Notes under the pieces: model-generated
What the model was told of the DNA's origin: nothing
The model's database searches: none
What the model saw: only the letters and a program-made list of their open reading frames with translations
In this document: piece by piece, positions 9,406 to 31,297 of the stretch
Position numbering within the stretch: position 1 is the first letter of the stretch
Layout: the number at the start of each line of letters is the position of its first letter
Translations under genes and position numbers: made by a program
Assembly: GCA_964635565.1 (NCBI GenBank)
Contig: CAZWON010000007.1
Span: 1 to 62,822 of the forward strand
Length of the DNA stretch: 62,822 bases
Source: an uncultured Planctomycetia bacterium
GTDB lineage: Bacteria; Omnitrophota; Gorgyraeia; Duberdicusellales; 4484-171
Direction: 5' to 3'

Positions 9406-9410
9406 AATTT

Positions 9411-12288: not shown

Positions 12289-12305
12289 GATAAAAAATAA
12301 ACAAG

Positions 12306-13721: not shown

Positions 13722-13826
13722 CTGTTTTTGGTACCTAATAGTTTAGAGGGAATGCAGAGAATTTTAGCTTATCTTGTAGATGATAACTGTCTTTTTATTC
13801 TAGTGGTTAAGACAGTTTATTAAGTT

Positions 13827-14054
13827 GTGGAAGAAAATAGAAAGTTAAAATTTATAAAAGTAATTAGTGTAAATAATGTAGGAACTCTTTCTTTCATAAA
13901 ATCTCTTTTAGAAGATAAAGATATTCCTTACTATATTACTAATGAAAATTTTTCTGTTTTTTATGGGGGAGCAGACGGATTGACGCGGATGGATATAATG
14001 GTAAGAGAAGATAAGCTAAGAGAGACAAAAGATATTCTAAAAGGATTTATATAA
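13827..14054 (+). CDS. DUF2007-like putative signal-transducing protein
   Basis: IKSLLEDKDIPY...IMVREDKLRETKDIL pattern. Confidence 0.7.
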   Translation: MEENRKLKFIKVISVNNVGTLSFIKSLLEDKDIPYYITNENFSVFYGGADGLTRMDIMVREDKLRETKDILKGFI

Positions 14055-14066
14055 GAGAGATTATTT

Positions 14067-14140
14067 GCGGGCGTAGTTCAATGGTAGAACACAGGCCTTC
14101 CAAGCCTGATATGACGGTTCGATTCCGTTCGCCCGCTCCA
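14067..14140 (+). tRNA. tRNA-Gly(TCC)
   Basis: Acceptor GCGGGCG/CGCCCGC; CAGGC-CT-TCC-AA-GCCTG; encoded CCA. Confidence 0.96.
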
Positions 14141-14225
14141 GTTAAAACAAGGCAAAACTTTTAAGAATAATAAATTTATTTTAGGAAGAAAAGGATTAAT
14201 TATTGAATTAATAATTTAAAGTCAT

Positions 14226-15230: not shown

Positions 15231-15832
15231 TACCCTCTATAAAAGAAAGTTTTTTAAATAAAAAATTTATAGTACAGAGAAGAGCTGACGTTCTTTTTTC
15301 TTTCTTATCCCTAAATATTCTTTTTGATAAAATCTAAGTGATTTTTTTGAAATCTTGTTTTAGATTTCGTGTGTTTTTCCTTATAGGATAATGAGTAGTA
15401 AAGGTAGATGGCATCCCTATTTCCCTAATTCTTTGGACAAATTATGATATAATAAATAAACTTTTTAAAAAGAAGAAAGAGCAAGGTATTGGTATGCAGA
15501 AAAAATATTGTCTAAGTAAAAAGGGAATGCGTCCAAAGATAGGGAGTCAGCCCATTTTGTTGTGATTATTAAAGGAGAGCTAACGGTACTTATTATATTT
15601 TATTATATTAGGAGGTTGGCAATCCAGAGGAGGTAGGTCTTTTTTAGATGTGTTTTTTGTGGTTTTTTTGTGCTTTCCGGTAGTATTTTTAAGAGATTTA
15701 GTTGATGCGACTTGTTTCTTCACTTTTAAAACATATCTTTTTATTCTTTTAAATAACTTCTCATCAAAAGATGAAAGAGGCTTTATGGGTGTATACCGTG
15801 TTCTTTTGCTTTTCTCAAGCTCAATAGAGAGC

Positions 15833-15861
15833 TTGACAAACTATTAATTATAGGATAAATT
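15833..15861 (+). promoter_or_regulatory. sigma70 promoter of aroK operon (leaderless), -35 overlapped by an inverted repeat
   Basis: TTGACA (15833-38), 17 nt, TAAATT (15856-61), 6 nt to ATG; TCAAGCTC/GAGCTTGA repeat at 15815-15836. Confidence 0.65.
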
Positions 15862-15867
15862 TTTGGC

Positions 15868-16377
15868 ATGGATAAAAATATATATCTAGTAGGATTTATG
15901 GGTACAGGTAAAACTACAGTAGGTAAGATTTTATCTAAAGAGCTTAAAAGAGAATTTGTGGAAACTGATGAACTTATTGAGAAGAAGGAAAATTTAGATA
16001 TTCCTGCGATTTTTTCCCTTAAAGGAGAACGATATTTTCGTAAGGTAGAAAAAGAAGTATTAAAAGAGGTATCATGTAAGAATAGTTTGATAGTAAGTTG
16101 TGGTGGAGGGATAGTAATAGATAAAGAAAATTTAAGTTTGTTAAAAAAAACAGGATTTGTTGTCTGTCTTACCGCAGATGCTTCTATAATTTATGAGCGT
16201 ACTGTTTCTTACAAGCATAGGCCTTTACTTAATGTAGATAATCCTTTAGAGAGGATAAAAAAACTTTTGAGAGAAAGAGAACCTTTCTATAAAGAGGCTC
16301 ACCTTTTTATTGATACTGCAAATATTTCTCCTCAAGATGTCGCAACAAAAATAATCAAAGAGTTAAATAATGTATAA
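15868..16377 (+). CDS. aroK: Shikimate kinase
   Basis: GFMGTGKTT, GERYFR, GGG, RPLL. Confidence 0.95.
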   Translation: MDKNIYLVGFMGTGKTTVGKILSKELKREFVETDELIEKKENLDIPAIFSLKGERYFRKVEKEVLKEVSCKNSLIVSCGGGIVIDKENLSLLKKTGFVVCLTADASIIYERTVSYKHRPLLNVDNPLERIKKLLREREPFYKEAHLFIDTANISPQDVATKIIKELNNV

Positions 16378-17437
16378 AAATCCATTTATTTTAATTAATA
16401 AGGTAAAATTAGCCTTTAAAGAGACAAATTTACTGTTAAATTATTTTTCTAATCCTAATGATATATTTAAGGCAAAAAAAGAAGATTTTCTAAGAGCAGG
16501 ACTGAAAGAAAAATCAGCCAATAATATAATATCCATGCTCAATAGTTACGAAATTGATGAAGAAATGAGACTCATAGATAAAGAGGAGATAGAGGTTGTT
16601 GATTGGTTTAGTGAAGATTATCCTCCTCTGTTAAAAGAGATACCCTTTCCTCCTTTAGTCCTTTATGTAAAAGGAGATAAGAAGCTATTAAGTAAGATGT
16701 GCATTGCCATTGTTGGCTCAAGATTGGCAAGTTTATATGGTATTCAAATGGCTGAGAAATTTTCTTATAGCTTAGCTAGTTTAGGATTAGTTGTAGTTTC
16801 AGGCTTAGCCAGAGGAATAGATACCTCAGCCCATAATGCTGCTTTAAAGTCAGGTTTTACTATTGCAGTATTAGGAAGTGGTTTACTTAATATTTATCCT
16901 CGCCAGAATTATAATCTGGCTAAGGAGATATTTAGGAAAGGAGCGGTAATATCAGAGTTTTCTTTGAGAGAACCCCCATTAAAAGAGAATTTTCCTCGGC
17001 GGAACAGAATAATAAGCGGATTATCAAAAGGTGTTTTAATAGTGGAAGCAGCTAAAAAGAGTGGCGCCTTGATTACTGCCCGTCTTGCATTAGAACAGAA
17101 TAGGGAGGTTTTTGCTGTCCCAGGCAAAGCAGATTCTCCTTTAAGTAAGGGAGTTCACTTTTTGATTAAAGAAGGAGCGAAGCTGGTAGATTCATTAGAT
17201 GATATTCTTGGGGAGTTGAATATAAAATGGGATAAAGAAGAGACTACTGTTAATTTAACATCGGAAGAAAAGGTTGTTTTTGATATAATTAGTAAGGAAG
17301 GAATGTTTCTGGAGGAAATTATTCTTAAGAGTGGATTGGATTATAAGTCAGCCCATCGAGCTATTCTTTATCTTCAGGTAAAAGGGCTAATAGAAGAAAA
17401 AAAACCTCTTTATTTTGCAAGGAGTGTTTATGGCTAA
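16370..17437 (+). CDS. dprA: DNA processing protein DprA
   Basis: IVGSR, SGLARGID, FPRRNRIISG, VEAAKKSGALITA. Confidence 0.96.
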   Translation: MYKNPFILINKVKLAFKETNLLLNYFSNPNDIFKAKKEDFLRAGLKEKSANNIISMLNSYEIDEEMRLIDKEEIEVVDWFSEDYPPLLKEIPFPPLVLYVKGDKKLLSKMCIAIVGSRLASLYGIQMAEKFSYSLASLGLVVVSGLARGIDTSAHNAALKSGFTIAVLGSGLLNIYPRQNYNLAKEIFRKGAVISEFSLREPPLKENFPRRNRIISGLSKGVLIVEAAKKSGALITARLALEQNREVFAVPGKADSPLSKGVHFLIKEGAKLVDSLDDILGELNIKWDKEETTVNLTSEEKVVFDIISKEGMFLEEIILKSGLDYKSAHRAILYLQVKGLIEEKKPLYFARSVYG

Positions 17438-19394
17438 ATATCTGGTGGTAGTAGAATCGCCTACAAAGGCAAAGACTATATCAGGATTTTTAGGTAACTT
17501 ATACGAGGTAGTTTCTTCTATGGGGCATATTGTAGACTTGCCTTCACGTTCTTTAGGTATAAAGATAAAGGAAGGTTTTGAACCTTCTTACCATATTATC
17601 CCAGGGAAAGAGAAGATAGTAAGTCAATTAAAGAAAAAAGCAAAAAATAAGAAGGTTATCTATTTAGCTACTGACCCTGATAGAGAAGGAGAGGCTATAG
17701 GATGGCATATAAGGAATATTTTTTCTTGGGACAACAAAAAATTCCTACGTGTAGTGTTTCATGAGATTACTGAATCTGCCTTAAAAGAGGCCTTTAACAA
17801 AGCAGGTGATTTGGATATTAATAAAGTTAATGCTCAGAAGGTTCGTCGGATTCTTGATAGAATTGTAGGATACTATTTATCTCCTCTCTTATGGAAAAAA
17901 GTTCTTAGAGGACTTTCTGCAGGAAGAGTTCAGTCTGTTGCTTTGAAATTTATTGTAGAAAGAGAAAAAGAAATAGAGAAATTTATCCCTACAATAACTT
18001 ATGAGTTAGAGGGTATTTTTAGGAAAGACCGTGCCTTATTTAAAGCTCGTCTTAAAAAAATTAACAATGAAAGAGCTGTTTTTCACAAAAAGGATAAAGC
18101 TAATTCTATGCTGAATATTATAAAAAATAATAAATTTTTTGTTAAGAAAATAGTTAAAAAGGAATTTAAACGTCGTCCTCCATCCCCTTTTACTACATCA
18201 TTATTACAGCAAGAAGCTTTTAATAAACTTAAGTTTTCTTCAAAAAAGACAATGCTTATTGCTCAGCATCTGTACGAAGGAATTGCTATTAAGGGTAAAA
18301 TGACCGGCCTTATTACTTATATGAGGACAGATTCCTTCCGTATTGCAGATAAAGCTAAAAAAGAGGGAAAGTTATTTGTAGAACAACAATGGGGGAAAAA
18401 GTATGTATGTAGTAAAGAATACAGGTATAGAGAAAAGAAATCCGCCCAATTAGCTCATGAAGCAATAAGACCGACTAATATAGCTCTTATTCCTTCTGAG
18501 ATTGAGGAGTATTTAAGCCAGGATGAGTTTAAACTTTATAAGCTCATTTGGGAAAGAAGTGTTGCTCTATTTATGAAAGAAGCAGTGTTGGAAACTTCTA
18601 AGGTTTTAATTAGTGATGAAGATCAAAAAATAGAATTTATTGCAGAAAGTAAGAAGGTTGTTTTTGATGGTTTCTTGAAAGTAATAGGAAGAGAGGGTGA
18701 GAAGATTTTACCTCCTTTAAAAGAGAAAGAAGAAGTATTATTAGAGGATGTAGATATTGTAGAAAAGACAACCAAGCCCCCTCCGCGTTTTACCGATGCT
18801 TCTTTGGTGAAGATATTGGAAGAAAAAGGCATAGGACGCCCTTCTACCTATGCTCCTACAATCTCTACGCTTGTTGCAAGGAATTATGTGCGAAGAGAAA
18901 AAGGATGTTTTATCCCCACAGATTTAGGAGTGCGTGTATGTGAACTTTTAGTAAAATATTTTAGTGAAATTATGGATGAAAATTTTACCGCCCAGATAGA
19001 GGATAAGTTAGATAGAGTAGAAGATGGAAATATCGATGGTAGAGAAATTCTTGAGGAATTTTATCCGCCCTTTAAAGAAAAAATAGATTACGCCACAAAA
19101 CTTATCAAAAAGCAGATAGAGTTTGTAGAGAAAAAATGCCCTAAGTGTGGTAGACAACTTATGATTAAATGGTCACGCCGAGGGCGTTTTCTAAGTTGCT
19201 CAGGTTTTCCTGAGTGTAGATATGCAGAAAGTATCTCTACTGGTATAAAGTGCCCTTCGTGTAAGGAAGGAGAACTGGTAGAAAGGAGAAATAAAAGGGG
19301 ACAACTTTTTTATGGATGCAGTAAGTTTCCTAAGTGTCACTATACGACAAGGATACTTCTACCTTCAGGAGAAGAAAACAAAAGGCAAAAGTAA
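17430..19394 (+). CDS. topA: DNA topoisomerase I (start moved to ATG 17430)
   Basis: VVVESPTK, ATDPDREGE, SAGRVQS, ITYMRTDS, two C-terminal Zn ribbons; SD AAGGAG at 17419-24. Confidence 0.96.
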   Translation: MAKYLVVVESPTKAKTISGFLGNLYEVVSSMGHIVDLPSRSLGIKIKEGFEPSYHIIPGKEKIVSQLKKKAKNKKVIYLATDPDREGEAIGWHIRNIFSWDNKKFLRVVFHEITESALKEAFNKAGDLDINKVNAQKVRRILDRIVGYYLSPLLWKKVLRGLSAGRVQSVALKFIVEREKEIEKFIPTITYELEGIFRKDRALFKARLKKINNERAVFHKKDKANSMLNIIKNNKFFVKKIVKKEFKRRPPSPFTTSLLQQEAFNKLKFSSKKTMLIAQHLYEGIAIKGKMTGLITYMRTDSFRIADKAKKEGKLFVEQQWGKKYVCSKEYRYREKKSAQLAHEAIRPTNIALIPSEIEEYLSQDEFKLYKLIWERSVALFMKEAVLETSKVLISDEDQKIEFIAESKKVVFDGFLKVIGREGEKILPPLKEKEEVLLEDVDIVEKTTKPPPRFTDASLVKILEEKGIGRPSTYAPTISTLVARNYVRREKGCFIPTDLGVRVCELLVKYFSEIMDENFTAQIEDKLDRVEDGNIDGREILEEFYPPFKEKIDYATKLIKKQIEFVEKKCPKCGRQLMIKWSRRGRFLSCSGFPECRYAESISTGIKCPSCKEGELVERRNKRGQLFYGCSKFPKCHYTTRILLPSGEENKRQK

Positions 19395-19418
19395 AGGTAA
19401 AGGTGTAATTGCAATCAT

Positions 19419-20303
19419 ATGATACCTTTTAATTATTATATTGATAAATATTTAGATTATTTACGTCTGGAGAAAAACTACTCTTCTCATACTATTACCA
19501 ATTATGCTGTGGATCTTAGAGATTTTTATGATTATCTTATTGAGGATAATAAAAAAGAGATTCCCTTAGAGAAAATTGATTATTTTATTTTGAGAAAATT
19601 TCTAAGTAAACTCGTGGTGAAAAATTTAAATAAACGGAGCATTTCCCGTAAAATTTCTGCCCTAAAGAGTTTTTTTAAATTTCTTATAAAAGAAGGAAAT
19701 ATAAAAAGTAACCCTGCTGCTTCTCTTATTTATCCTAAGATGGACAAGAATTTGCCTAAGTTTTTAACAGAAGAAGATATAAAAAGAATTCTTGATTCTG
19801 CACAAGGAACTAATTTATTTCAATTAAGAGATAGAGCTATTTTAGAATTTTTGTATTCTACAGGAGCAAGAGTTTCTGAGACTACTACTATAAAAATAGA
19901 AGACGTTGATTTTATAGGTGGTATTGCTAAAGTAAAAGGGAAGGGGCAGAAAGAAAGGCTTCTTCCTTTGGGAGAACCCGCCTTATGTGCAATAAAAGCT
20001 TATCTTGATAAAAGAAATGATTCTTGTTCTTATCTTTTTGTTAATAGAAGATTAAAAAAGTTAACAGACAGGGGTCTTAGAAATATTGTTAATAAGTATA
20101 TTAATAAAGCTTCTATACGTTTGAAAGTTTCACCACATACTTTCAGACATTCATTTGCTACACATCTTCTTAATAGAGGAGCTGATTTAAGAAGCGTTCA
20201 GGAGCTTTTAGGCCATTCTAGTATTTCCACAACTCAGGTTTATACACATCTTACAATTGATTCTTTAAAGAAAATTTATAATAGAACTCATCCCCGCGCA
20301 TGA
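19419..20303 (+). CDS. xerC: Tyrosine recombinase XerC
   Basis: TGARVSE, HTFRHSFATH, LGHSSISTTQVY; conserved dprA-topA-xerC order. Confidence 0.9.
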   Translation: MIPFNYYIDKYLDYLRLEKNYSSHTITNYAVDLRDFYDYLIEDNKKEIPLEKIDYFILRKFLSKLVVKNLNKRSISRKISALKSFFKFLIKEGNIKSNPAASLIYPKMDKNLPKFLTEEDIKRILDSAQGTNLFQLRDRAILEFLYSTGARVSETTTIKIEDVDFIGGIAKVKGKGQKERLLPLGEPALCAIKAYLDKRNDSCSYLFVNRRLKKLTDRGLRNIVNKYINKASIRLKVSPHTFRHSFATHLLNRGADLRSVQELLGHSSISTTQVYTHLTIDSLKKIYNRTHPRA

Positions 20304-21574
20304 GATTATTAATTTTTGTTATTTATGATATAGCTTTGTTTATTGCTGTTTTGTTTTTTCTCCCTCTTTATGCTTTGCGGAAAAAAATAAATTTTGAAGC
20401 TTTATTAGAGAAATTAACTATAGTTATTCCTGTAAAAAAGATAGAAGAATCTATATGGATCCAGGCGGTAAGTGTAGGAGAAGTTATTTCCATAAGAGCA
20501 TTAGTTGATAACCTCCAAAATTACTTTTCTTTCCGAATAGTTATTTCCACTACTACTCTGACAGGAAAGAAAGTAGCAAAAAATATATACGGAAATAAAG
20601 CCGATATTATTTTTCTTCCTTTTGATATCACATTTTTAGTAAAAAGAATTATAAAGAGAATTAATCCTAAGATATTTATTGCTATTGAAACAGAAATTTG
20701 GCCTAATCTTTTTTATCAATTGTATAAAAAAAAGATACCAATAGTTATATTAAATGGAAGAATTTCAGATAAAGCTTATAAGAGGTATAAAAAAATTAAA
20801 TTTATTACAGAAAAAATTCTTTCTCTGTGTTCATATATAGGTGTACAAAATAATTTTTATCTTGAACGTTTTCTTTCTTTAGGAGCTTCTTCAGATAGAA
20901 TTGCTATTAGTGGAAATATTAAATTTGCTAATATTATAGTTAAACAAAAAAAACTCCTTAACTTTAAGGATGAATATCTATCCTTACTCAAGCATAAATC
21001 AAAATTTCTTTTTATTGCTGCCTCAACCCACAGTAGAGAAGAAAAGGCAATATTGGAAGTTTATAAATCAATAAAGGAAAGATTTTCTTGTAATCTTTTA
21101 ATTGCCCCTCGTCATCCTGAGAGAACAAAAGAGGTAGAAAAGGAAGTGAGAAGAACTGGATTAATTGCTTTAAGGATTAGTCAGCTAAGAGAGAAAGAAG
21201 ATATTTTAGATAAATGTGTGTTTATTTTGGATACTGTAGGAGACCTTTTTTATTTTTATAGTATAGCAGACGTATGTTTTGTAGGAGGAAGTCTTTTTGA
21301 CTATGGAGGGCATAATATTCTGGAGCCTCTTTATTTTTCAAAACCTACTCTTTTTGGTCCCTATATGAGTAATTTTAAAGAGATAGAAGAGGTTGTCTTA
21401 GAGAAAAAAGCAGCAATAAAAGTGCAGGATAAAAAACAATTGAGATATTATATAGAAAGGATTCTTTTTGATGATGAATTTAGAGAGGTATTATGTAAAA
21501 ATGCTTCTAAAATTTTTGAGCATCAAAGAGCTTTGGTCAAAAAGAATATAGAGATAATTAAGTCTCTACTGTAA
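20300..21574 (+). CDS. waaA: Kdo transferase
   Basis: WIQAVSVGE, ETEIWPN, IAPRHPER, GGHNILEP. Confidence 0.93.
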   Translation: MRLLIFVIYDIALFIAVLFFLPLYALRKKINFEALLEKLTIVIPVKKIEESIWIQAVSVGEVISIRALVDNLQNYFSFRIVISTTTLTGKKVAKNIYGNKADIIFLPFDITFLVKRIIKRINPKIFIAIETEIWPNLFYQLYKKKIPIVILNGRISDKAYKRYKKIKFITEKILSLCSYIGVQNNFYLERFLSLGASSDRIAISGNIKFANIIVKQKKLLNFKDEYLSLLKHKSKFLFIAASTHSREEKAILEVYKSIKERFSCNLLIAPRHPERTKEVEKEVRRTGLIALRISQLREKEDILDKCVFILDTVGDLFYFYSIADVCFVGGSLFDYGGHNILEPLYFSKPTLFGPYMSNFKEIEEVVLEKKAAIKVQDKKQLRYYIERILFDDEFREVLCKNASKIFEHQRALVKKNIEIIKSLL

Positions 21575-21576
21575 AG

Positions 21577-22602
21577 ATGAATATGAGGAAGAGCTTTTTT
21601 GTTTCTGCAAAAATTTGGTATATTAATTTTTTAAAAAGAAAAGATAAATATTTCTTTTCCATGTGTCTCTATTATTTTCTTGTGGGATTATCTTATATAT
21701 ATCAACTTTTACTATTTTTAAGAAATAAGGCTTATGATTATAAGTTTTTTCCTGTTTATAGCGTTCATAAAAAAGTAATAAGTGTAGGCAATATTTCATG
21801 GGGTGGGGTAGGTAAGACAAGTTTGGTAAGTTATCTTCATACGAGATTATCTTCTTTTATTAAAGTAGCTTCTATCACTAAAGGTTATGCTAAAGATGAG
21901 GTTATGTTATTAAAGAATAAGTTAGACAATGTATTTGATTCCAAGAACAGAGTTTCTCTTATCAGAAGTTTAGAAAAAAAATTTGACCTGTTTATACTTG
22001 ATGATGGTTTTCAATACAGGAGGTTAAAAAGAGATTTGGACATTGTTATTATAAGCAGTAGAGAGTTCTGTAGCAGTTGGCATCTTTTACCTGCAGATGT
22101 GTTGCGGGAGCCTTTAAAAAGCCTAAGGCGGGCAGATATTGTAGTTATAAACTATTGGCGGTTAATCCACAATTTAGATTACTGGCAAAAAAGATTACTT
22201 TCTATAAACCCTCGTCTTAAAATTTATCTTTCTGAATATATACCTCGAGGGTTTTTGGATAAAAATAGAAGGTTAATAAAGATGGATTATTTTCAGAAAA
22301 AAAAGGTAGCTGTTTTAACTGCTATTGGATATCCTCAAGGGTTTATTGATATTTTAAGAAAATTGTCGATTAACATTAAAAAGATTTTTATTTATCCTGA
22401 TCACTATGAATTTGATAGAAAAGATTTATTTTCCATAGAACAGAAGCTTAAAAAAAATGATATATACAATATAATTATTACTTATAAGGATTTTTATCAT
22501 ATTGATTTAGAGAACGCTCAACTTAATTATTTTATCTTAGATGTGGATTTAAAAATAGAAGAAGAGGAGAATTTTTTTAATGAGGTAAAGAAAGTTCTAT
22601 AG
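21577..22602 (+). CDS. lpxK: Tetraacyldisaccharide 4'-kinase
   Basis: SVGNISWGGVGKT, ILDDGFQ, LREP, YPDHY. Confidence 0.92.
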   Translation: MNMRKSFFVSAKIWYINFLKRKDKYFFSMCLYYFLVGLSYIYQLLLFLRNKAYDYKFFPVYSVHKKVISVGNISWGGVGKTSLVSYLHTRLSSFIKVASITKGYAKDEVMLLKNKLDNVFDSKNRVSLIRSLEKKFDLFILDDGFQYRRLKRDLDIVIISSREFCSSWHLLPADVLREPLKSLRRADIVVINYWRLIHNLDYWQKRLLSINPRLKIYLSEYIPRGFLDKNRRLIKMDYFQKKKVAVLTAIGYPQGFIDILRKLSINIKKIFIYPDHYEFDRKDLFSIEQKLKKNDIYNIIITYKDFYHIDLENAQLNYFILDVDLKIEEEENFFNEVKKVL

Positions 22603-22676
22603 AAACTTTTCTAAGAGACATATGCATATATTTAATTTCTAAAGAAAAATAGAAAAATTAAGAGGGGAAAGGCTTT

Positions 22677-24491
22677 ATGTATTTTATATTTACTTTATTT
22701 TGTAAAATTATAAATGTTTTCCCTTTAAAATGCGTTTTAAATTTAGGGAAATTAATAGGATTGGGCTTTTATTATTTTAGTAGAAGCAAGAGAAAGGTAG
22801 GTTTTATTAATCTTAAACTTGCATTTCCTCATAAAGACAATAGAGAGATTCTTTATATTTTAAAGAAGAGCCTTATGAATTTTGGGATGAGCATTATAGA
22901 AAGCTTAGTTATAAAGAAACTTATAGATAAAAAATTTATTGAGGATTTAGATTTTGATGATGCAGAAGAAAATAATATATTAGTAGGTGTTCATGGGGGA
23001 AGTTGGGAACTATATAATGCTAAGATTGCTTGTTATCGTAAGTTTGCAGTTCTTGTCCAGAAGCAGAAGAATGTTTGTTTTGATAGATTTATAAATGAAC
23101 AGAGGAATAAAAACAATATTAACATCTGTTTTTCTTTAAAGTGTCTTATAGAATACTTGAATAAAGGTTATTGGATAGGTTTAGTTGTTGACCATGGTGC
23201 AGAGAAGAAATCTTTATACATAGAATTTTTCGGTAGTGAAGTTCCTACACCAGGAGGAGCAGTGCACATTGCTAAAAAATTCAATAAAAGAATATATCCT
23301 GTTTTTGGGCGCCGAGAAAAAGATGGTAGGCACGTTCTTAAGATAGGAGAAAGTATTGATTGTAGAGCTATCAGCAACAAAGAAGCATTGTTAAGATTAA
23401 ATAGAACCTATGAGAAATTTATTTCTTTGTATCCTTCAGAATATATGTGGTGGTATAAGCGCTTTAAACGCAGGAAAACTTTTTATTCTTTGATATTAAG
23501 TGATGGTAAAATAGGGCACCTTAAACAGTCGCTTTTTTTCCAGGCATTTTTAGAGAATAAAGGTTATAAAATAAAGAAAGAAATCGTAGAGATAACAGGT
23601 CTTACTAAAACTAAAAGAGCATTTATCGAAGCATGTGCATTTTTTTCTCATAAGTCTGTAGGTAAGCTTTACCCTTTAAAATGGGTGCTTAAGAATGAGG
23701 AGTTTTATAAATTAAGCAGAGTATTTGCTGATTTTGTAATAAGTACAGGTAGTTCTTTAGGAGGGATAAATTTAATCGTTGCCCATTCTTTAGGGGCTAA
23801 ATCAATTGTTATTCTTAAACCTAATCTGCCCATAGAGAAATTCGATTTGGCTGTTATTCCTGAACATGATAATTTACAGGCTGAGAATGTAGTTAACATA
23901 AAAGGAGCTTTAAGTTATCCTTTAGATTCTTATAATGATGGATTAAATCTTTCCCGACATTTTAGTCTAAGCAGTAAGGATAAAATAGCAGTTTTTATAG
24001 GAGGACCATTAACTAACGGAAATATCTTTTATGAGAATATTAAGATATTTATCGATAAGCTCAAAAATTTCTCTTTAAGAAAAGATTTTAAGATTTTAAT
24101 TTCTACTTCCCGCCGGACTCCCTCTGCAATTGAAAAATTAATAGAAGAAGAACTTAAAGAATTTAGAAATACTGAAGTTATTATAATCGCCAATAGAAAA
24201 AATTACCCCTTTGTTACAGGAGGATTTTTACATTTTGCCTCATTTGTTTTTATAACCGCAGATAGTATCTCTATGATTTCTGAAAGCCTGAGCATGAAGA
24301 AAACTACCATATGTATAGAATTAGAAGAGATATTAAATATCCATCATGTGAACTTTATGGATTCTGTGAGAGATTTGATTAATTTTATAAAGTCTCCTTA
24401 TGAAAATATGGATAATTTTTATGAACCTTCTTTTTCTCTTTTGGAATATAATCAAGAGGTTTTAAAGAAAGCAATACAAAAAATTATATAA
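22677..24491 (+). CDS. Fusion: lipid A acyltransferase (LpxL/HtrB-like) + ELM1/GtrOC1-family domain
   Basis: N-half HGGSWE and YMWWYKRFK; C-half from ~23490 LSDGKIGH...Q, IPEHD, TSRRTP, TADSISMISE. Confidence 0.8.
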   Translation: MYFIFTLFCKIINVFPLKCVLNLGKLIGLGFYYFSRSKRKVGFINLKLAFPHKDNREILYILKKSLMNFGMSIIESLVIKKLIDKKFIEDLDFDDAEENNILVGVHGGSWELYNAKIACYRKFAVLVQKQKNVCFDRFINEQRNKNNINICFSLKCLIEYLNKGYWIGLVVDHGAEKKSLYIEFFGSEVPTPGGAVHIAKKFNKRIYPVFGRREKDGRHVLKIGESIDCRAISNKEALLRLNRTYEKFISLYPSEYMWWYKRFKRRKTFYSLILSDGKIGHLKQSLFFQAFLENKGYKIKKEIVEITGLTKTKRAFIEACAFFSHKSVGKLYPLKWVLKNEEFYKLSRVFADFVISTGSSLGGINLIVAHSLGAKSIVILKPNLPIEKFDLAVIPEHDNLQAENVVNIKGALSYPLDSYNDGLNLSRHFSLSSKDKIAVFIGGPLTNGNIFYENIKIFIDKLKNFSLRKDFKILISTSRRTPSAIEKLIEEELKEFRNTEVIIIANRKNYPFVTGGFLHFASFVFITADSISMISESLSMKKTTICIELEEILNIHHVNFMDSVRDLINFIKSPYENMDNFYEPSFSLLEYNQEVLKKAIQKII

Positions 24492-24528
24492 TTTTATATA
24501 TTTTATTTCAGCCTATTTAATTAAAATA

Positions 24529-26589
24529 ATGAAAATAATCCAGATATTACCCAAAATGAATGTAGGAGGAGTAGAAAGAGGAATTCTTGATTTTGCTAAG
24601 TATTTTAACGAGACAGAAAATGAGATTGTTGTTGTATCAGGAGGGGGTAAGCTTATAAAGGAGTTAGAGAAATTTAATATTCAGCACTATAAACTTAACG
24701 TTTATAAAAAATCTCCTTTAAGTCTGCTGTCGATAAAGAAACTCCGTAGGATTATTGAGAAAGAAAAAGGTGGTATTGTTCATGCCCGTTCACGCGTACC
24801 TGCTTGGATAGCTTTTTTTGCTACTCGTAGAAGTAATGTTGAATTTATTACTACTGCTCATGGTTTTTATTCCCCGCATTTTCTAAGTTATATAATGAGT
24901 TTGGGAAAGTTTGTGATATGCCCTTCAAAAGTCATTGCTCGTCATATGCAAGAAGCATTTGGAGTTTCTCCTGCTAAGATTAAAATTATTCCTCGCTGGG
25001 TAGATCTCGATAGATTTAAGTTTACCCCTGAAAGAGAAAAGACAGAAGATACTACTCTTTTAAGTGTGGGAAGGATTAGCCCTTCTAAAGGTTATGAATA
25101 TCTTATAAGTGCTATGCGACGCATAGTAAGAGTTAATCCTTATATCCGTTTAGATATTGTTGGCTCTGCAGAGAGTAATAGAGAGAGATACTTCAATTAC
25201 CTTAAAAGTTTGGTCCAACGATATTCTTTGAACTATAATATCAGGTTTTTAGGTTATAGAGATGATATAGAGAAGATTTTATCCTATGCTCATTTACTTG
25301 TAGTCTCTTCTGTAATAGAGGAGTCTTTTGGGAGGGTAATTATTGAGGCAATGGCAGTAGGTGTTCCTGTGGTTGCTACAAAAGTAGGAGCTATCCCTGA
25401 AATTGTAGAGGATAAAAAAGATGGTTTTTTAGTTCCTCCTCGTGATCCTCATGCATTAAGCAAAACAATTTTAGAGATTTTAAGAAACAAAAGTGTGACT
25501 GAGAAAATAATTTTAAATGCCAGAAAAAAAGTAGAAAAAAAATACTCTTCATTAGGATGCATAAAGGAAATACATGATTTATATAGGAAAGCAAAAGAGT
25601 TTAAAAGGATTCTTGTTATAAAAATATCTTCATTAGGAGATATAATTCTTGCAATTCCTTCTCTTAAAGCAATTAAAGAAAGATACCCTTATAGCGAAGT
25701 GACACTTCTTATATTAAAAAAGTATATTTCTTTGCTTCATGATTGTCCTTTTGTAGATAGAATTATTGGTTTAGATAATAATTATAAGAAGATATCCTAT
25801 CTTTTTAGTATTTCTTTAAAGCTTTGCAGAATGAGTTTTGATTATATAATTGATTTCCAGAATAGTTTTGCTTCCCACATAGTTTCTTTTTTGAGTTTTC
25901 CAAAACGTTCTTTTGGATATAGACGTAAGTGGGGATTTCTTCTTACTAATAGCATAAGAATTAAAAAGAAAGAAGAGAACCCTTTAGATTCTCAAGAGAA
26001 TATTTTAAAGTTATTGGGAATAAAATTGCAAAAAAAAGAGCTTACCTTTTGGTCAACAAAAGATTCCTCTTTGGAGAAATTCGGTATATTTAAAAATGAC
26101 AAATTAATAGGTATCAATATCTCTGCTTCTTTTAAATGGAAAAGCAAAAATTGGCCTCTTTTATATATAAGGAAATTAATTGAGCTTATTAGTAAGGAGT
26201 TGCGGGACTATAAAGTAGTACTTCTGGGAGATAGTTATAGTTTAAGAGATAGCAATAATCTTGTTGAGTATTTTAAGGGTAAGATAATTTCTTTATGTGG
26301 TAAGACTACTTTAAAAGATTTAGTTGCTGTTGTTAGAATGTGTAAGGTATTTATTACACAGGACACAGCAACATTGCACTTAGCCTGCGCCTTAAATACA
26401 AAAACTATTGCTATTTTTGGCCCTACTAACCCCTCTTATCATACGGTAAAGAGTAAAAATCTTAGAATTATTTATGAAAGATTGCCTTGTTCTTTCTGTT
26501 ATAAAAGAAAATGTGGGCATCATACATGTATGAAGTCTATTACACCACAGAAGGTATTTTTTCAGGTAAAGTCAATTTTAAAAGAATGA
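24529..26589 (+). CDS. Fusion: GT4 glycosyltransferase + GT9 heptosyltransferase-like domain
   Basis: GGVERG, HARSR, ESFGRVIIEA; from ~25603 RILVIKISSLGD, DTATLHLA, FGPT. Confidence 0.88.
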   Translation: MKIIQILPKMNVGGVERGILDFAKYFNETENEIVVVSGGGKLIKELEKFNIQHYKLNVYKKSPLSLLSIKKLRRIIEKEKGGIVHARSRVPAWIAFFATRRSNVEFITTAHGFYSPHFLSYIMSLGKFVICPSKVIARHMQEAFGVSPAKIKIIPRWVDLDRFKFTPEREKTEDTTLLSVGRISPSKGYEYLISAMRRIVRVNPYIRLDIVGSAESNRERYFNYLKSLVQRYSLNYNIRFLGYRDDIEKILSYAHLLVVSSVIEESFGRVIIEAMAVGVPVVATKVGAIPEIVEDKKDGFLVPPRDPHALSKTILEILRNKSVTEKIILNARKKVEKKYSSLGCIKEIHDLYRKAKEFKRILVIKISSLGDIILAIPSLKAIKERYPYSEVTLLILKKYISLLHDCPFVDRIIGLDNNYKKISYLFSISLKLCRMSFDYIIDFQNSFASHIVSFLSFPKRSFGYRRKWGFLLTNSIRIKKKEENPLDSQENILKLLGIKLQKKELTFWSTKDSSLEKFGIFKNDKLIGINISASFKWKSKNWPLLYIRKLIELISKELRDYKVVLLGDSYSLRDSNNLVEYFKGKIISLCGKTTLKDLVAVVRMCKVFITQDTATLHLACALNTKTIAIFGPTNPSYHTVKSKNLRIIYERLPCSFCYKRKCGHHTCMKSITPQKVFFQVKSILKE

Positions 26590-27659
26590 ATATCCTTATT
26601 CTCACTACTCATCTTAATCCTGGAGGAATCTCCCGTTATGTTGTTAGTTTATCTTGCGCTCTCTCTAAGAATAATAATGTCTGGGTGGCTTCAGATAAAG
26701 GAGAATGGCAAAAAGAATTAGTGAATTCTAAAGTAGGATATAAACATATTCCTATAGCAACAAAGTCTATAATGGATATAAAAGTATTTTGCTCTTTTTT
26801 CATTCTTGTTCCTTTTGTTTTAAAAAATAAAATAGATATTATTCATTGTAATACTCGGGTGACACAATTTATAGGATTTCTTTTATATATATTTTTAAGA
26901 AAAAAATATGTTTCTTCTTTCCATGGTTTTTATCGTCCCCATCTGGCAAGAAAAATATTTAAATTTGAAGGGATAAAATCAATCGCAGTAAGCGGGGCAG
27001 TAAAAGAACATCTATATAATGATTTAAAGATAAAAAAAGATAAAATTGAAGTAATTTACAATGGGATTGAGAAGAAAGATTTTTCTTCAAAAAAATATAG
27101 AAAAGAAGATGTGGGCTTAGAAGATAGTTGCATAACTTTAGGTATCTTAGGAAGGATTTCAGAAGAAAAAGGACATTTTTTAGTTTTAAAGGCTTTTAGA
27201 GAGTTAAAAGATAAATTTAAAAACATTTTTCTTCTTGTCTGCGGTAAAGGGAAATTAGAGAATAAACTTAAAAAGCGTATAGATGAGATGGGAGTTAAAG
27301 ATGAGGTTTTATTTGTATCTTTAAAGGCAGAGGATTTTCTTGATATCGTTGATATACTTTTAGTGGCTTCTTTTAAGGAAGGTTTTGGCTATACTATCTT
27401 GGAAGCATTCGCTAAAGAAGTATGTGTTATAGGATTTGCTACAGGAGGCATAAAAGAAATCATAAAAGATAAAGAAAATGGCCTCCTTTTTTATGATTAC
27501 AAAAAGGATGCTTTAATTGATACCATTAATAGTTTACTTAATGATAATCTTCTTAAAGAAAAAATTAAACAAAAAGCAAAGGAAAGTTTAGAAGTATTTT
27601 CTCTCGATAAAATGGCTCATTATACAGAAGCAGTGTATAAGGAAGTTTTAAGAGGATAA
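26586..27659 (+). CDS. GT4 glycosyltransferase (start moved to ATG 26586)
   Basis: MNILILTTHLNPGGI, EGFGYTILEA; ATGA overlap with the upstream stop. Confidence 0.88.
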   Translation: MNILILTTHLNPGGISRYVVSLSCALSKNNNVWVASDKGEWQKELVNSKVGYKHIPIATKSIMDIKVFCSFFILVPFVLKNKIDIIHCNTRVTQFIGFLLYIFLRKKYVSSFHGFYRPHLARKIFKFEGIKSIAVSGAVKEHLYNDLKIKKDKIEVIYNGIEKKDFSSKKYRKEDVGLEDSCITLGILGRISEEKGHFLVLKAFRELKDKFKNIFLLVCGKGKLENKLKKRIDEMGVKDEVLFVSLKAEDFLDIVDILLVASFKEGFGYTILEAFAKEVCVIGFATGGIKEIIKDKENGLLFYDYKKDALIDTINSLLNDNLLKEKIKQKAKESLEVFSLDKMAHYTEAVYKEVLRG

Positions 27660-27661
27660 AT

Positions 27662-28735
27662 ATGAGAGAGTCTATTGTTGATAAGGTAAATTTCGGAGAA
27701 AAGTTTCTTGTTGTGAGTGTGAATTGGTTAGGCGATTGCGTGATGAGTTTACCCATATTTAAGGCTATAAAGGATAAATTCCCTGGTGCATTTTTAGCAG
27801 TTATGACAACTCCTCGTGTTAAAGAGCTTTTTGAAAACATTGCTTATATCGATGAAGTTATTGAGTTTGATGAGAGGACAAAAAATAGAAGTTTTTTTGC
27901 TAAGATAAGATTTATTAAGGAGTTAAGGAAAAGAAGATTTGATGTTGCATTTTTTCTGCATCGTTCTTTTACGCGCATATTAATTTGTGCGCTTTCTGGA
28001 ATAAAAAAGAGAATTGGCTATAAGAGAAAAAAGACATCGTTTTTACTCACAATAAAAATAACTCCTCCTCAAAAAGACTCTTTGCATCGTGCTGATTATT
28101 ATTTCTATCTTTTTGAAAAGGTTCAAATTCCTGTGAAAGATAGAATTCCTCATTTGGCAATAAAAGAGAAAGAAGAGAATAAAATTCATCGTTTTTTTGT
28201 AGAACATAAAAAGAGATATTCTTATACTGTTGCTATTAATCCCTCCAGTAACTGGAATTTAAAATCTTGGCCTATTGATTACTTTGTTGAGCTGATTAAG
28301 GAAATGATTTCTCAAAAAATTTGTGTTCTGTTAATTGGTACAAAGAAAGAAGAAAGGATTGCTAATGAAATAGTAAAGAAAGTAGGATTAAAAGACCTCT
28401 TTAGTTTTTGCGGAAAGACTACTTTAAAGGAATTACTTATTATTCTTAAAGGAGTAGATATGTTGATCTCTTCTGATTCAGGCCCAGCTCATTTATCTTC
28501 TGCTGTCGGTACTTCTACAGTTGTATTATTTGGGCCAACTTCTCCTTATATTACTGCACCAAAAGGAGATAAAGTCGTAATTATAAGAAAAGATATTGGT
28601 TGTCGGATTCCTTGCTATAAACTTGATTGTAGAGATAATAGGTGTATGAAAGAGATTACTCCACAATTAGTATGGTCTATAATTAAACCTATTCTTTATG
28701 GGAAATCACAGATTTGCTATAAAGAAGAGGGTTAA
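27662..28735 (+). CDS. waaF: LPS heptosyltransferase II (GT9)
   Basis: NWLGDCVM, SDSGPAHL, FGPT. Confidence 0.8.
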   Translation: MRESIVDKVNFGEKFLVVSVNWLGDCVMSLPIFKAIKDKFPGAFLAVMTTPRVKELFENIAYIDEVIEFDERTKNRSFFAKIRFIKELRKRRFDVAFFLHRSFTRILICALSGIKKRIGYKRKKTSFLLTIKITPPQKDSLHRADYYFYLFEKVQIPVKDRIPHLAIKEKEENKIHRFFVEHKKRYSYTVAINPSSNWNLKSWPIDYFVELIKEMISQKICVLLIGTKKEERIANEIVKKVGLKDLFSFCGKTTLKELLIILKGVDMLISSDSGPAHLSSAVGTSTVVLFGPTSPYITAPKGDKVVIIRKDIGCRIPCYKLDCRDNRCMKEITPQLVWSIIKPILYGKSQICYKEEG

Positions 28736-28819
28736 CTTTAACTTGGAGGATAATAAGATAGAAATTGTTCGTTTACAATATTACTTTATTGATTCTATAA
28801 GAAATAAGATAGGATAAAA

Positions 28820-29746
28820 ATGATTAAGAAGATAATTATTAATTTGCCTACTAATATTGGCGACACCATTCTTGCATTTCCTGCCATAGACTTAATAAGA
28901 GAAAATTATCCTCAGGCAAATATAACAGCAGTAGTTTCCTCTAATACTTGTTCTTTTGTAGAAAGATATAGCGCTGTAAATAGAGTAATAGAGTATAATA
29001 AAAAATGGAAGGTTAGAGAAAAAATGAGCTTTTGTAGAATGCACCGCCATAAGTATGATTTGATGATAGATTTTAAACATTCATTGCTTCCTCTATTCCT
29101 TAGGATATCAAAGAGAACCCCTCTTGTTAGGCTATTTGAAAAAAAAATGCATAAAAAAGATAGATATATAGATTTGATACATAAGTTTATTAACGTTAAT
29201 AATGTAAAACAAAGCACTTTTTTCTTAACTGACAGAGAAAAAGAGAAATGGGATTCATTAAGGTTGAATTCGGCAATATTTATTGCCACTGCTTCTAATT
29301 CTCATCTTAAAAGATATCCTCAGCCTTATTTAAAAAAAGTAATAGAAAAATTAGTGGAGGATTATCCTGTAGTCATTTTAGGGACAGAAAGAGATAGAAA
29401 GTATTATGGTGATATTTTCTCTATAAGAAGAGTTATTGATTTGACAGGTAAAACCAGGATTTTTGAAGTGCATTACCTTCTTAAGAATTTTTCCTCTTTG
29501 GTTATATGTGTTGATTCATCGATTTTACACTTGGCGAGTTATCTAAATCTGCCTGTAGTCGCTTTATTCGGACCTACTGATGAGAAGCTTTATGGTCCTT
29601 ATTCCGATAGACATAGGGTTCTATATGATAAAAATTTAAAATGCCGACCTTGCCAAAAGTCATTCTGCAACAAAGAGAGAGAATGTATGAGAAGAATCTA
29701 TCCTGGTGATGTTTTGATATCAATAAGAGAACTTATCTGTCACTAA
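28820..29746 (+). CDS. GT9 glycosyltransferase
   Basis: NIGDTILAFP, VDSSILHLA, ALFGPT. Confidence 0.85.
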   Translation: MIKKIIINLPTNIGDTILAFPAIDLIRENYPQANITAVVSSNTCSFVERYSAVNRVIEYNKKWKVREKMSFCRMHRHKYDLMIDFKHSLLPLFLRISKRTPLVRLFEKKMHKKDRYIDLIHKFINVNNVKQSTFFLTDREKEKWDSLRLNSAIFIATASNSHLKRYPQPYLKKVIEKLVEDYPVVILGTERDRKYYGDIFSIRRVIDLTGKTRIFEVHYLLKNFSSLVICVDSSILHLASYLNLPVVALFGPTDEKLYGPYSDRHRVLYDKNLKCRPCQKSFCNKERECMRRIYPGDVLISIRELICH

Positions 29747-29761
29747 CGGAGACCGATTATA

Positions 29762-30790
29762 ATGGTAGTTCCTAAAAGAATACTGATTATAAGAACAGAT
29801 AGAATAGGAGATGTTATATTATCTACGCCTGTAATAAAAAATTTAAGATTGGCATATCCGCATAGTTTTATAGCGTTTATGTGCCGTCCTTATACTAAGG
29901 ATATAATTGATGGCAATCCTTATTTAGACGAAGTGATTGTGTATGATAAATATGGAGAGCACAGAAGTTTTCTGTCATCATGGCGTTTTTCTCTTTATCT
30001 AAAAAAGAAAAGATTTGATATAGCAATAATTCTTCACCCTACTAATAGAACACATCTCCTAACTTTCTTTGCAGGAATTCCTTTAAGGATTGGATGGGAT
30101 AAAAAGTTTGGTTTTCTTTTAACTCATAAATTACCTTATACCAAACATACAGGAGAAAAACATGAATTAGAGTATACTTTAGATTTATTGAGGCTGATTG
30201 AAGTTCCTATAAGAGACAAAAACACTTTTTTCCCTATTAAAAAAGAGGCAGAGAGGTTTATAGATAGGTTATTTTTGGAATATAATATTTCTCAAAAAGA
30301 TAAAATTTTTGTTATTCATCCTTCAGCATCGTGTATTTCTAAACGCTGGCCCCAAAAATATTTTATTGAGTTGATAAATCTTATTAAAAAAGAATTTAAT
30401 CCTAAAATATTTATTGTTACTTCCCCTAAAGAAATTATTTATGCTGAGAAAATTATGCAGGCTCATTCCTATCTTATTGATTTACGGGGTAAATTAACTC
30501 TGGCTCAGTTAGGAGCTTTGCTTAAGAAAACAGACATTTTTATTTCGAATGATAGTGGACCTGTTCATGTTGCTTCTGCTTTAAGAGTACCGGTTATATC
30601 TATATTTGGAAGAAATGATAAAGGACTTTCTCCTTTACGTTGGAAGCCTTTAGGGGAAAGAGTATTTTTTTTACATAAGGATGTAGGATGCAGGAGGTGT
30701 TTTGCTCATAATTGCACAAAAAAGTTTTTATGTCTTAAAGCAATAAAGCCAGAAGAAGTTTTTGGATTGGTAAAGAAACTTCTCGTTTAA
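29762..30790 (+). CDS. GT9 glycosyltransferase
   Basis: RILIIRTDRIGD, NDSGPVHVA, SIFG. Confidence 0.88.
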   Translation: MVVPKRILIIRTDRIGDVILSTPVIKNLRLAYPHSFIAFMCRPYTKDIIDGNPYLDEVIVYDKYGEHRSFLSSWRFSLYLKKKRFDIAIILHPTNRTHLLTFFAGIPLRIGWDKKFGFLLTHKLPYTKHTGEKHELEYTLDLLRLIEVPIRDKNTFFPIKKEAERFIDRLFLEYNISQKDKIFVIHPSASCISKRWPQKYFIELINLIKKEFNPKIFIVTSPKEIIYAEKIMQAHSYLIDLRGKLTLAQLGALLKKTDIFISNDSGPVHVASALRVPVISIFGRNDKGLSPLRWKPLGERVFFLHKDVGCRRCFAHNCTKKFLCLKAIKPEEVFGLVKKLLV

Positions 30791-30859
30791 CAATAGTTGA
30801 AAAGATTAAAATAGATAATCAACATTTCTATACCTATTTCCCACCTATCTAAAAAAAAC

Positions 30860-30888
30860 TTGATAACCTTTGGGGATGTTGCTATAAT
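30860..30888 (+). promoter_or_regulatory. Promoter of tRNA-Ile2
   Basis: TTGATA (30860-65), 17 nt, TATAAT (30883-88) with TG at 30880-81. Confidence 0.75.
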
Positions 30889-30905
30889 TTTTATTCACTT
30901 TCTAC

Positions 30906-30982
30906 GGGCCCGTAGCTCAGCTGGTTAGAGCAGTTGACTCATAATCAATTGGTCCGGGGTTCGAATCCCTGCGGGCCCACCA
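30906..30982 (+). tRNA. tRNA with CAT anticodon, probably Ile2 (lysidine)
   Basis: GGGCCCG/CGGGCCC acceptor, GTTGA-CT-CAT-AA-TCAAT, CCA encoded; C4:G69 and C5:G68 pairs are TilS determinants; G1:C72 excludes initiator Met. Confidence 0.9.
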
Positions 30983-30983
30983 G

Positions 30984-31018
30984 ATAGCTAATAGTTCGTA
31001 GCTCATGGCTGATAATAT
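30984..31018 (+). repeat. Heptamer tandem array ATAGNNN-type
   Basis: ATAGCTA ATAGTTC GTAGCTC ATGGCTG ATAATAT. Confidence 0.7.
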
Positions 31019-31044
31019 ATAAATTATTTTGTTCGAGCGATAGG

Positions 31045-31086
31045 CTAAATACTATTCGCTAATCGCTATTCGCTAAGTGCTAAAAT
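31045..31086 (-). repeat. Heptamer tandem array, inverted relative to 30984-31018
   Basis: CTAAATA CTATTCG CTAATCG CTATTCG CTAAGTG CTAAAAT on + strand. Confidence 0.85.
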
Positions 31087-31102
31087 TCGCAAAGCGAATT
31101 TT
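31082..31102. repeat. Perfect palindrome/hairpin immediately before tRNA-Val
   Basis: AAAATTCGC-AAA-GCGAATTTT. Confidence 0.8.
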
Positions 31103-31103
31103 T

Positions 31104-31177
31104 GGGCGATTAGCTCAGCTGGTTAGAGCGCTACGCTCACATCGTAGAGGTCACAGGTTCAAATCCTGTATCGCCCA
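31104..31177 (+). tRNA. tRNA-Val(CAC)
   Basis: GGGCGAT/ATCGCCC; CTACG-CT-CAC-AT-CGTAG; no CCA. Confidence 0.95.
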
Positions 31178-31297
31178 TATTTTATGATAAAAATAGGTAA
31201 AAAGATATTTTAGATTGATGAGAGTAGTTAATATTTTCCTAATAAAATATGGGGACTCCTAAAATAATGGAAGATTATCTGTTGTATATAAAAAATA

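Follow-up and report, generated by a model that had tools for sequence, protein, structure and literature searches.

Two tRNA genes of an uncultured Omnitrophota bacterium, carried on a 62,822-nt stretch of DNA (the window, by which we mean the whole stretch that was analysed), are separated by a spacer built of 7-nt repeat units in two opposite orientations. The question raised by this locus is what kind of element fills the spacer and where it belongs among known repeats. Our analysis indicates that the spacer is very probably a gene-less copy of a cassette family in which inverted arrays of 7-nt units (heptads) bracket a gene of the Pfam family PF05635 (23S_rRNA_IVP, the 23S rRNA intervening sequence protein), coding for a four-helix bundle of about 120 aa.

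Anatomy and folding of the tRNA spacer

The features of the locus are collected in Table 1. The gap between tRNA(CAT) and tRNA-Val is 120 nt long and is filled entirely by the heptad element; only a single G (30983) separates the encoded CCA (30980-30982) from the left array. An earlier note on this DNA had described a period-7 array right after the tRNA CCA, an oppositely oriented array about 30 nt further on, and a palindrome abutting tRNA-Val. All three were recovered as described, and the distance between the arrays was measured as 33 nt. On the minus strand, the right arm reads as TAG-N4 repeated six times. The three TAGs of the left arm occupy all three plus-strand reading frames, and of the two palindrome halves, one is the last inverted heptad and the other a single AGCGAAT unit in direct orientation. 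ARAGORN labels tRNA(CAT) as Met; we tentatively take it to be a lysidine-type tRNA-Ile2 because of its likeness to E. coli ileX.

Table 1. Features of the tRNA(CAT)-tRNA-Val locus (window positions).
Feature	Position	Strand	Details
tRNA pair promoter, sigma-70-like	30860..30888	+	TTGATA, 17 nt, TG-TATAAT; predicted to drive both tRNAs
tRNA, anticodon CAT, CCA encoded	30906..30982	+	ARAGORN; Rfam 73.3 bits
predicted main stem-loop	30983..31064	+	left arm pairs with first three right-arm units; ~30 pairs, small internal loops
left arm, 4 direct heptads	30984..31011	+	ATAGCTA ATAGTTC GTAGCTC ATGGCTG; core T-R-G-C/T
central loop, 33 nt, AT-rich, without ORF	31012..31044		site of PF05635 gene in loaded relatives
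right arm, 6 inverted heptads	31045..31086	-	plus strand CTAAATA CTATTCG CTAATCG CTATTCG CTAAGTG CTAAAAT
terminal palindrome, 9-bp	31082..31102		AAAATTCGC-AAA-GCGAATTTT; ends one base before tRNA-Val
tRNA-Val (CAC)	31103/4..31178	+	ARAGORN, Rfam

In the promoter scan, the promoter matched 11 of 12 consensus positions and had an extended -10 element, and it is also kept in a relative (L001); within the spacer interior, the scan called neither a second promoter nor a terminator. Rfam at gathering thresholds returned tRNAs only, with no family for the spacer and no rRNA in the window. Around the element lie the two tRNA genes together with ORFs of heptosyltransferase-like and zinc-ribbon type; none of the neighbouring ORFs was a small regulator gene. 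Directly upstream of the tRNA promoter, positions 26511-30790 carry a glycosyltransferase-like ORF followed by three consecutive heptosyltransferase-like ORFs, which, judged by eye, are presumably glycosyltransferase family 9-like.

In the window, TAGN4TAGN4TAG was found at 6 places where 1.04 were expected, a count that none of 100 shuffles reached; five of the six occurrences lie inside the tRNA-tRNA spacer. Two period-7 chains of T[AG]G[CT] with at least four units were observed, one of 4 and one of 6 units, lying next to each other on opposite strands. Simulation gave 0.02 such chains per window and none longer than 4 units; a chance origin of the arrays was rejected on these numbers. Tandem Repeats Finder reported the second array with period 7 and also with period 14 (score 50). 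A period-7 call at 37054-37081 lies inside an adenosylhomocysteinase-like ORF, is coding, and is unrelated to the spacer arrays. A CRISPR-like array was likewise considered for the spacer and rejected. The earlier note had looked to further period-7 arrays and to an association with four-helix-bundle genes for support; no other heptad array of this type was found elsewhere in the 62.8 kb, whereas the gene association was found in other genomes, as described below.

Folding of the whole spacer as RNA gave a minimum free energy of -34.8 kcal/mol for the transcribed strand (z = -3.1), and none of 200 shuffles folded as well. In this fold, the left array is base-paired to the first half of the right array. 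For the antisense strand the value was -27.6 kcal/mol (z = -2.0), 7 kcal/mol less favourable. In the minimum free energy fold, the 3' half of the palindrome pairs with an upstream TTCGC unit instead of its own partner.

Heptad cassettes with and without a PF05635 gene

The YebC protein of the window shares 93% identity with proteins from uncultured MAGs, and 60-84% with those from named Omnitrophota MAGs. Across 809 kb of YebC neighbourhoods, period-7 chains were confined to Omnitrophota loci. The tRNA(CAT)-tRNA-Val pair is syntenic across Omnitrophota, with spacers ranging from 17 to 366 nt. In six relatives (L013, L014, L015, L016, L020, and L021), the same spacer carries period-7 arrays with the core A-T-R-G-C followed by inverted units, and these spacers fold as hairpins. 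L001, the closest relative, matches the window almost exactly in the promoter and in both tRNAs (tRNA(CAT) without an encoded CCA), and the spacer is unalignable from the discriminator base to three bases before tRNA-Val, where a different long hairpin (z = -2.8) is found. Other relatives have a short plain spacer only. As the L001 hairpin is unrelated in sequence, a processing hairpin in this spacer need not be built of heptads, and the comparison across relatives indicates that a long hairpin is a recurrent property whose content is replaceable.

Gene-less heptad hairpins were also found outside tRNA spacers. In L038, three gene-less copies of about 130 nt occupy successive gaps of the yebC-ruvCAB row within 2.3 kb. 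In each copy, a conserved inner hairpin stands between 4-5 direct heptads (nTAGCGn) and 4 inverted heptads, CTATTCG and CTAATCG among them; the copies fold at -66 to -71 kcal/mol (z = -9.8), with the sense strand better than the antisense strand by 10-15 kcal/mol. No target-site duplication was visible at the window copy, the only one in 62.8 kb, or at the three L038 copies. An hmmsearch with the PF05635 profile was negative for the window and for 36 Omnitrophota YebC loci alike.

Several further repeats were observed at these loci. In the Omnitrophota MAG L026 (5496-5929), 62 heptads (ATAGTGA / ATGGTGA) follow one another without a break immediately upstream of yebC; the array has no inverted partner nearby and shows how far heptad arrays can expand. 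In L024 (4062-4346), the tRNA(CAT)-Val spacer consists of three tandem copies of an 85-nt unit; its 'spacers' are identical, so the array is not CRISPR-like. The MAG contigs of L002, L007, L015, and L025 start within or just after the tRNA(CAT)-Val spacer.

Other small elements were noted at tRNA genes. In the window (61113-61250), a hairpin GGATGCACTAT...ATAGTGCATAC lies about 115 nt downstream of tRNA-Ser(CGA) and is followed by an exact duplicate of the tRNA 3' end from the T-loop onward (CAAATCCCAGCCTCTCCG). Five Omnitrophota relatives have this hairpin and a displaced tRNA 3' end after tRNA(CAT) (L006 626-796, L007 1-143, L016 ~60-175, L020 4477-4610, and L021 4293-4425), and a tRNA-Val version is present in L003 (1-135). 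The outer pairs of these hairpins covary (CTCG/CGAG, TTCG/TGAA, CTTG/CAAG). Judged from sequence, this looks like a gene-less element of about 100-150 nt with tRNA T-loops as its integration sites, each insertion supplying the tRNA with a new 3' end. The heptad hairpin of L016, L020, and L021 lies beyond the displaced end and is for that reason placed as the older of the two. Another small gene lodged in a tRNA cluster of the window is a 75-aa DUF2007 ORF (13827-14054; PF09413, E = 1.9e-10), which lies alone in the 344-nt tRNA-Tyr/tRNA-Gly spacer.

The earlier note had stated that inverted heptamer arrays flank four-helix-bundle genes in some bacteria and had proposed a test of co-location. 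The statement was borne out in many phyla. Arrays were searched in a collection of 185,579 species genomes; the counts are lower bounds, not a census, and the rules are core-specific, so that arrays with other cores are missed. A scan for four TAGC heptads gave matches from many phyla. Among the matches listed, a TAGC array followed by a GCTA array at a spacing below 100 nt outnumbered the reverse order 40 to 5. Two array pairs enclosed ORFs that Pfam assigned to PF05635 (E = 1e-29 and 4e-39). The gene-less state was commoner than the loaded state in the sampled arrays (about 40 gene-less pairs with loops of 12-95 nt vs 2 loaded pairs, among the TAGC-array matches listed).

A gapped pattern, TAGC-N3-TRGC-N3-TRGC-N{155,185}-NIAEG, which places heptads about 170 nt before an NIAEG motif, matched at least 120 loci compared with about 1.6 expected by our calculation. 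A PF05635-like ORF was present in 119 of the 120 listed loci, with Pfam E-values of 1e-29 to 1e-39. Among the matches listed, the hosts were Bacteroidota, Planctomycetota, Nitrospirota, Chloroflexota, Proteobacteria, Actinomycetota, CPR groups, and two DPANN archaea. By a strict rule, 87 of the 122 cassettes that had room for an array at either side carried both arrays; the median unit numbers were 5 and 4. All inspected loci among 80 Acidobacteriota PF05635 loci had the same heptad design, with cores TAGC, CAGC, or GAGC. An array-unbiased sample of cassettes was obtained by searching metagenomes with Omnitrophota PF05635 proteins: a period-7 chain was found upstream in 46/65 (71%) and downstream in 52/65 (80%), compared with 12/102 (12%) of the controls, and period 7 was dominant, with TAG as the commonest conserved triplet. 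The literature search found no paper stating a general rule that links PF05635 to heptads, or a location in tRNA spacers.

Loaded cassettes were found in three Omnitrophota relatives. In L330, a loaded cassette fills a tRNA-tRNA spacer, as the heptads do in the window, in the order tRNA 3' end, ATTAGCT AATGGCA TATGGCT..., PF05635 gene, ...TAAGCCA TATGCTA, tRNA-Arg, and further heptads. L358 comes from the MAG that also contains L007, whose YebC shares 84% identity with that of the window; the PF05635 gene of L358 is bracketed by TTTAGCG AATAGCA ATTAGCA... and CTAATCG CTAACCG CTATCCA CTAATCG..., the 3.2-kb contig carries this gene a second time, and the protein matches PDB 2GSC. No close relative of the L358 protein was found in the metagenome search, where the best match was 56% identical. 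In L334, the loaded cassette lies beside tRNA-His. The heptads CTAATCG / CTATTCG are common to the arrays of the window, of L358 (loaded), and of L038 (gene-less). An exact match to the 26-nt right arm was absent from the 185,579 species genomes, a collection that the window organism lies outside.

Among 139 sampled loaded cassettes, 9 adjoined a tRNA, all co-oriented with it, and none lay inside rRNA. None of 167 general TAGC arrays had a tRNA within 60 nt among the matches listed, which we count against the reading preferred here, as we do the lone copy and missing PF05635 gene of the 62.8 kb and the short and degenerate state of the window arrays, of which the right arm is longer than the left. 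The design also varies. In L283 (Collinsella), the upstream and downstream arrays point the same way, and the inverted design is accordingly not universal.

Individual loci showed additional arrangements. In L161 (4760-5420), a PF05635 gene is flanked by period-8 CTTTGCCC-type and period-7 TTCGATG units, which are repeated in blocks downstream; unit length and core are thus not fixed across PF05635 cassettes. Downstream of the loaded cassette in L334 (5977-6110), two partial copies of the tRNA-His 5' part, each followed by the same 45-nt stretch, precede the intact tRNA-His. In a Chitinophagia MAG (L105, 1014-1050), a direct array ATTAGCT GGTAGCT ATTAGCC AATAGCC GTTAGCT lies in the 23S-5S spacer immediately before 5S rRNA and is the sole rRNA-linked array in the samples.

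Cassettes of this family are recognized by at least three tandem 5' heptads with a conserved core of 4-5 nt, a reverse-complementary 3' array (TAG core, then CTA core), arm units in common with related loaded cassettes, and a PF05635 gene between the arms. The window spacer has four 5' units with the core T-R-G-C/T, six reverse-complementary 3' units, and the units CTAATCG and CTATTCG; the gene is absent, and since the 33-nt loop holds none, we read the copy as an empty derivative. The suggestion of the earlier note that this is an empty or miniature copy is therefore the best-supported reading, given the same polarity, unit numbers of 4 and 6 against medians of 5 and 4, and the CTAWWCG heptad shared with L358 and L038. 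The loaded tRNA-tRNA spacer of L330 also supports this reading. The window copy may have lost its gene, or an empty form may have spread.

The distribution of the cassettes in Acidobacteriota bears on their persistence and on the mobile or recombinogenic nature suggested by the earlier note. Across dozens of species, 72 loci fell into only six flank-synteny groups (43, 20, 6, 1, 1, 1), and so few orthologous sites make the cassettes look like long-term residents kept through speciation. Against long-term residence stands the complete replacement of spacer content between the window and its closest relative, L001.

Proposed processing of the tRNA precursor and alternative explanations

By analogy with the intervening sequences (IVSs) of 23S rRNA, we consider it fairly probable that the spacer acts as an IVS-like stem in a tRNA dicistron, formed from the gene-less cassette copy and removed by RNase III; on RNase III processing of the stem taken by itself, the arguments for and against are about evenly balanced. 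The single promoter at 30860 would yield one Ile2-spacer-Val precursor transcript, and we infer co-transcription of both tRNAs from this arrangement. The two arrays would then anneal as a long, imperfect stem that is double-stranded over more than two helical turns, RNase III, which is double-strand-specific, would cut this stem as it does in 23S rRNA IVSs and set the two pre-tRNAs apart, and RNase P together with 3' trimming enzymes would complete both tRNAs. Slippage and arm-to-arm co-evolution would hold the arrays complementary. Because every unit is alike, pairing is possible in any register, and the stem would thus survive insertions and deletions of whole units. An element that is harmless or mildly useful in this way could be hosted by stable-RNA operons. 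A search for an RNase III signature found none in the 62-kb window, too small a stretch to be informative.

Comparison of the arms indicates constraint on their pairing. Arm units matched at variable positions at 0.83 within a cassette vs 0.58 for cross-cassette pairs (p = 1e-14); a unit-order permutation test of register-specific pairing gave no signal (0.827 vs 0.820), units within an array being too alike for it to be informative, and the cross-cassette control was used instead. The core type was concordant on both arms in 59 of 69 orthologous Acidobacteriota loci and differs between species. This concordant switching is compensatory change, which points to a pairing requirement or to one reader of both arms and argues against mere insertion scars.

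Whether pairing occurs in RNA or DNA was addressed through strand asymmetry. The sense strand folded better than the antisense strand in 10 of 12 Omnitrophota spacer or operon hairpins (9 of 11 heptad ones), the window included; the sense strands use more G-U pairs, and composition skew could contribute to the difference in folding. Across 81 pan-phylum cassettes, no sense-strand bias was found (G-U-type vs A-C-type mismatches 67 vs 76; arms-only dG -33.7 vs -34.6), so a DNA-level hairpin or a protein site fits these equally well. A cassette of peat Acidobacteria was detected in metatranscriptomes, where contigs run from neighbouring genes through either array. The sequencing runs found to carry window sequence were DNA metagenomes with no RNA runs among them, the exact spacer occurring in one sediment run, and no RNA runs with the Collinsella cassette were found.

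A broader interpretation, which we hold only as a speculative and rather doubtful one, is that heptad arrays and a PF05635 pentamer form one unrecognised class of cassette across bacteria, CPR, and archaea. The protein would read the units, as DNA or RNA and about one per subunit, and would so maintain, copy, or home the cassette; gene-less hairpins would be non-autonomous copies served in trans, and classical 23S rRNA intervening sequences would be a few copies that landed in rRNA. The period-7 TAG core would also close all three frames on each side and so insulate the cassette from neighbouring translation.

Among the explanations that compete with an RNase III-processed stem, two appear about equally improbable. 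In one, the element is a DNA-level array in which each heptad is the site of a repeat-reading protein that acts in regulation, recombination, or homing, the candidate readers being pentameric PF05635 in trans or an omega/pSM19035-type ribbon-helix-helix protein. Omega proteins of the pSM19035 type bind direct and inverted heptads. The 4-5 nt core kept in every unit while other positions drift is what such a reader would leave, co-evolution with one binding protein would switch the core of both arms together as pairing does, and the cassette stems without strand asymmetry agree with it; the median of five upstream units next to a homopentameric protein (PDB 2GSC relative) is suggestive only. 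However, we know of no binding demonstrated for PF05635 proteins, and neither a PF05635 gene nor a small regulator gene, such as the cognate DNA-binding protein gene expected beside an omega-type operator, adjoins the window element, although a protein could act in trans. The arms are complementary at variable positions too, which is needless for a reader of the core alone, and in Omnitrophota the better fold of the sense strand and its use of G-U pairs also speak against this reading.

The other is that the spacer is a locally evolved processing hairpin whose 7-nt period arose by replication slippage, convergent with the PF05635 cassettes and without common descent. The unrelated long hairpin at the same place in L001, the wide range of spacer lengths among relatives, and the ease with which heptamer arrays expand and contract (62 units in L026; different copy numbers among Coxiella strains) fit such an origin. 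It does not account for CTAATCG / CTATTCG units with the same polarity in loaded cassettes and multi-copy elements of other Omnitrophota, for the loaded cassette that occupies exactly such a tRNA-tRNA site in L330, or for the strong excess of TAG-then-CTA pairs over the opposite order among the closely spaced matches listed. A gene-less copy of the cassette family remains our reading of the spacer.

A terminator or attenuator between the tRNAs, in which the palindrome and a T-run stop some transcripts and the upstream TTCGC units offer alternative pairing, is very unlikely. The 9-bp palindrome is followed by Ts directly before tRNA-Val, and its 3' half is indeed paired alternatively with an upstream heptad in the minimum free energy fold; however, the stem is A/U-rich with only 3 G-C pairs, the T-run lies mostly within it, the palindrome is conserved in none of the relatives, and the two arrays are left unexplained. 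An intrinsic terminator was rejected because the scan of 30600-31500 on the plus strand called none, finding no G+C-rich stem with a free T-run. Hardly credible is a site for HutP, whose anti-terminator motif is UAG-N4-UAG-N4-UAG, or for another triplet-repeat RNA-binding protein on the precursor: the left arm is exactly UAG-N4 x3 on the transcribed strand, but two such sets on the same strand are needed and the plus strand has one, the second array gives UAG on the non-transcribed strand only, units vary to UGG, the conserved core extends to TAGC and shifts to CAGC or GAGC in other lineages, and no regulated ORF lies downstream.

The 23S rRNA IVSs were already known in the early 1990s, as were their S23p / PF05635 proteins, and we know of no accepted origin, function, or route of spread for them; to our knowledge, heptamers had been noted once before, in Coxiella, as a local detail. 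The spacer of the window led to a general rule, namely that in many phyla PF05635 genes stand between inverted heptad arrays that co-evolve, and gene-less hairpins of the same build are common and in Omnitrophota occupy tRNA operon spacers. This opens to testing what the arrays do (as an RNase III substrate, a protein site, or both), what the abundant PF05635 family binds, and why stable-RNA operons are favoured. For annotation, the contig ends of the relatives suggest that heptad repeats break short-read assemblies of metagenomes, and the arrays may explain why PF05635 appears 'CRISPR-associated' in large screens.

Comparison with known systems

Like REP/BIME-type and MITE-like repeats, the heptad hairpins are short, gene-less, hairpin-forming, and present in several copies in operon gaps (L038), where they could act on mRNA processing or stability. 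They differ in that their arms are arrays of a 7-nt unit, not one unique inverted repeat, and in that no target-site duplication was seen; we know of no RAYT or transposase for them. Tandem 7-nt intergenic units are also found among the intergenic heptamer direct repeats, which include TAACTGA in Beggiatoaceae, cyanobacteria, and Bacteroidetes and the STRR heptamers of cyanobacteria, and which vary in copy number and are patchy across phyla (PMC4679880). Those repeats have another unit and are direct, with one indirect set among 169, and no inverted partner or link to PF05635 is reported for them (PMC4679880).

The 23S rRNA IVSs have complementary borders, are removed by RNase III, and are described as unclear in origin and function; those of Leptospira, Coxiella, and Brucella encode S23p (PMC4990558), which the same source gives as a homopentamer of four-helix bundles (citing Lin 2006). 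The Coxiella IVS has two or three GACAGAT heptamers in tandem, depending on the strain; they stand in the 5' part of the stem, ahead of the S23p ORF, and the first of them is where RNase III cleaves the middle of the stem (PMC4990558). The window spacer resembles these S23p-encoding IVSs, which also include a Xanthomonas type, in its complementary arms and long stem around a loop, and both lie within a stable-RNA transcription unit (inferred for the window from its single promoter), where excision of an IVS is harmless. Among studied systems the Coxiella IVS stands closest to it, sharing the tandem heptamers in the 5' part of the stem, strain-variable in number there. The window spacer differs in its host, a tRNA-tRNA spacer instead of helix 9, 25, or 45 of 23S rRNA, and in the lack of a PF05635 ORF in its loop; both of its arms are overt heptads with a TAG(C) core, in contrast to the GACAGAT unit, and cleavage is known for Coxiella and predicted here.

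Further counterparts are the free-standing PF05635 cassettes of Acidobacteriota, Bacteroidota, CPR, Omnitrophota, and others, which are bAvd-like, PF05635 resembling the DGR accessory protein Avd (PMC10053308). Most of those cassettes lie between protein-coding genes and the window copy is gene-less, whereas polarity, unit length, unit number, and the TAG(C)/CTA core are the same in both.
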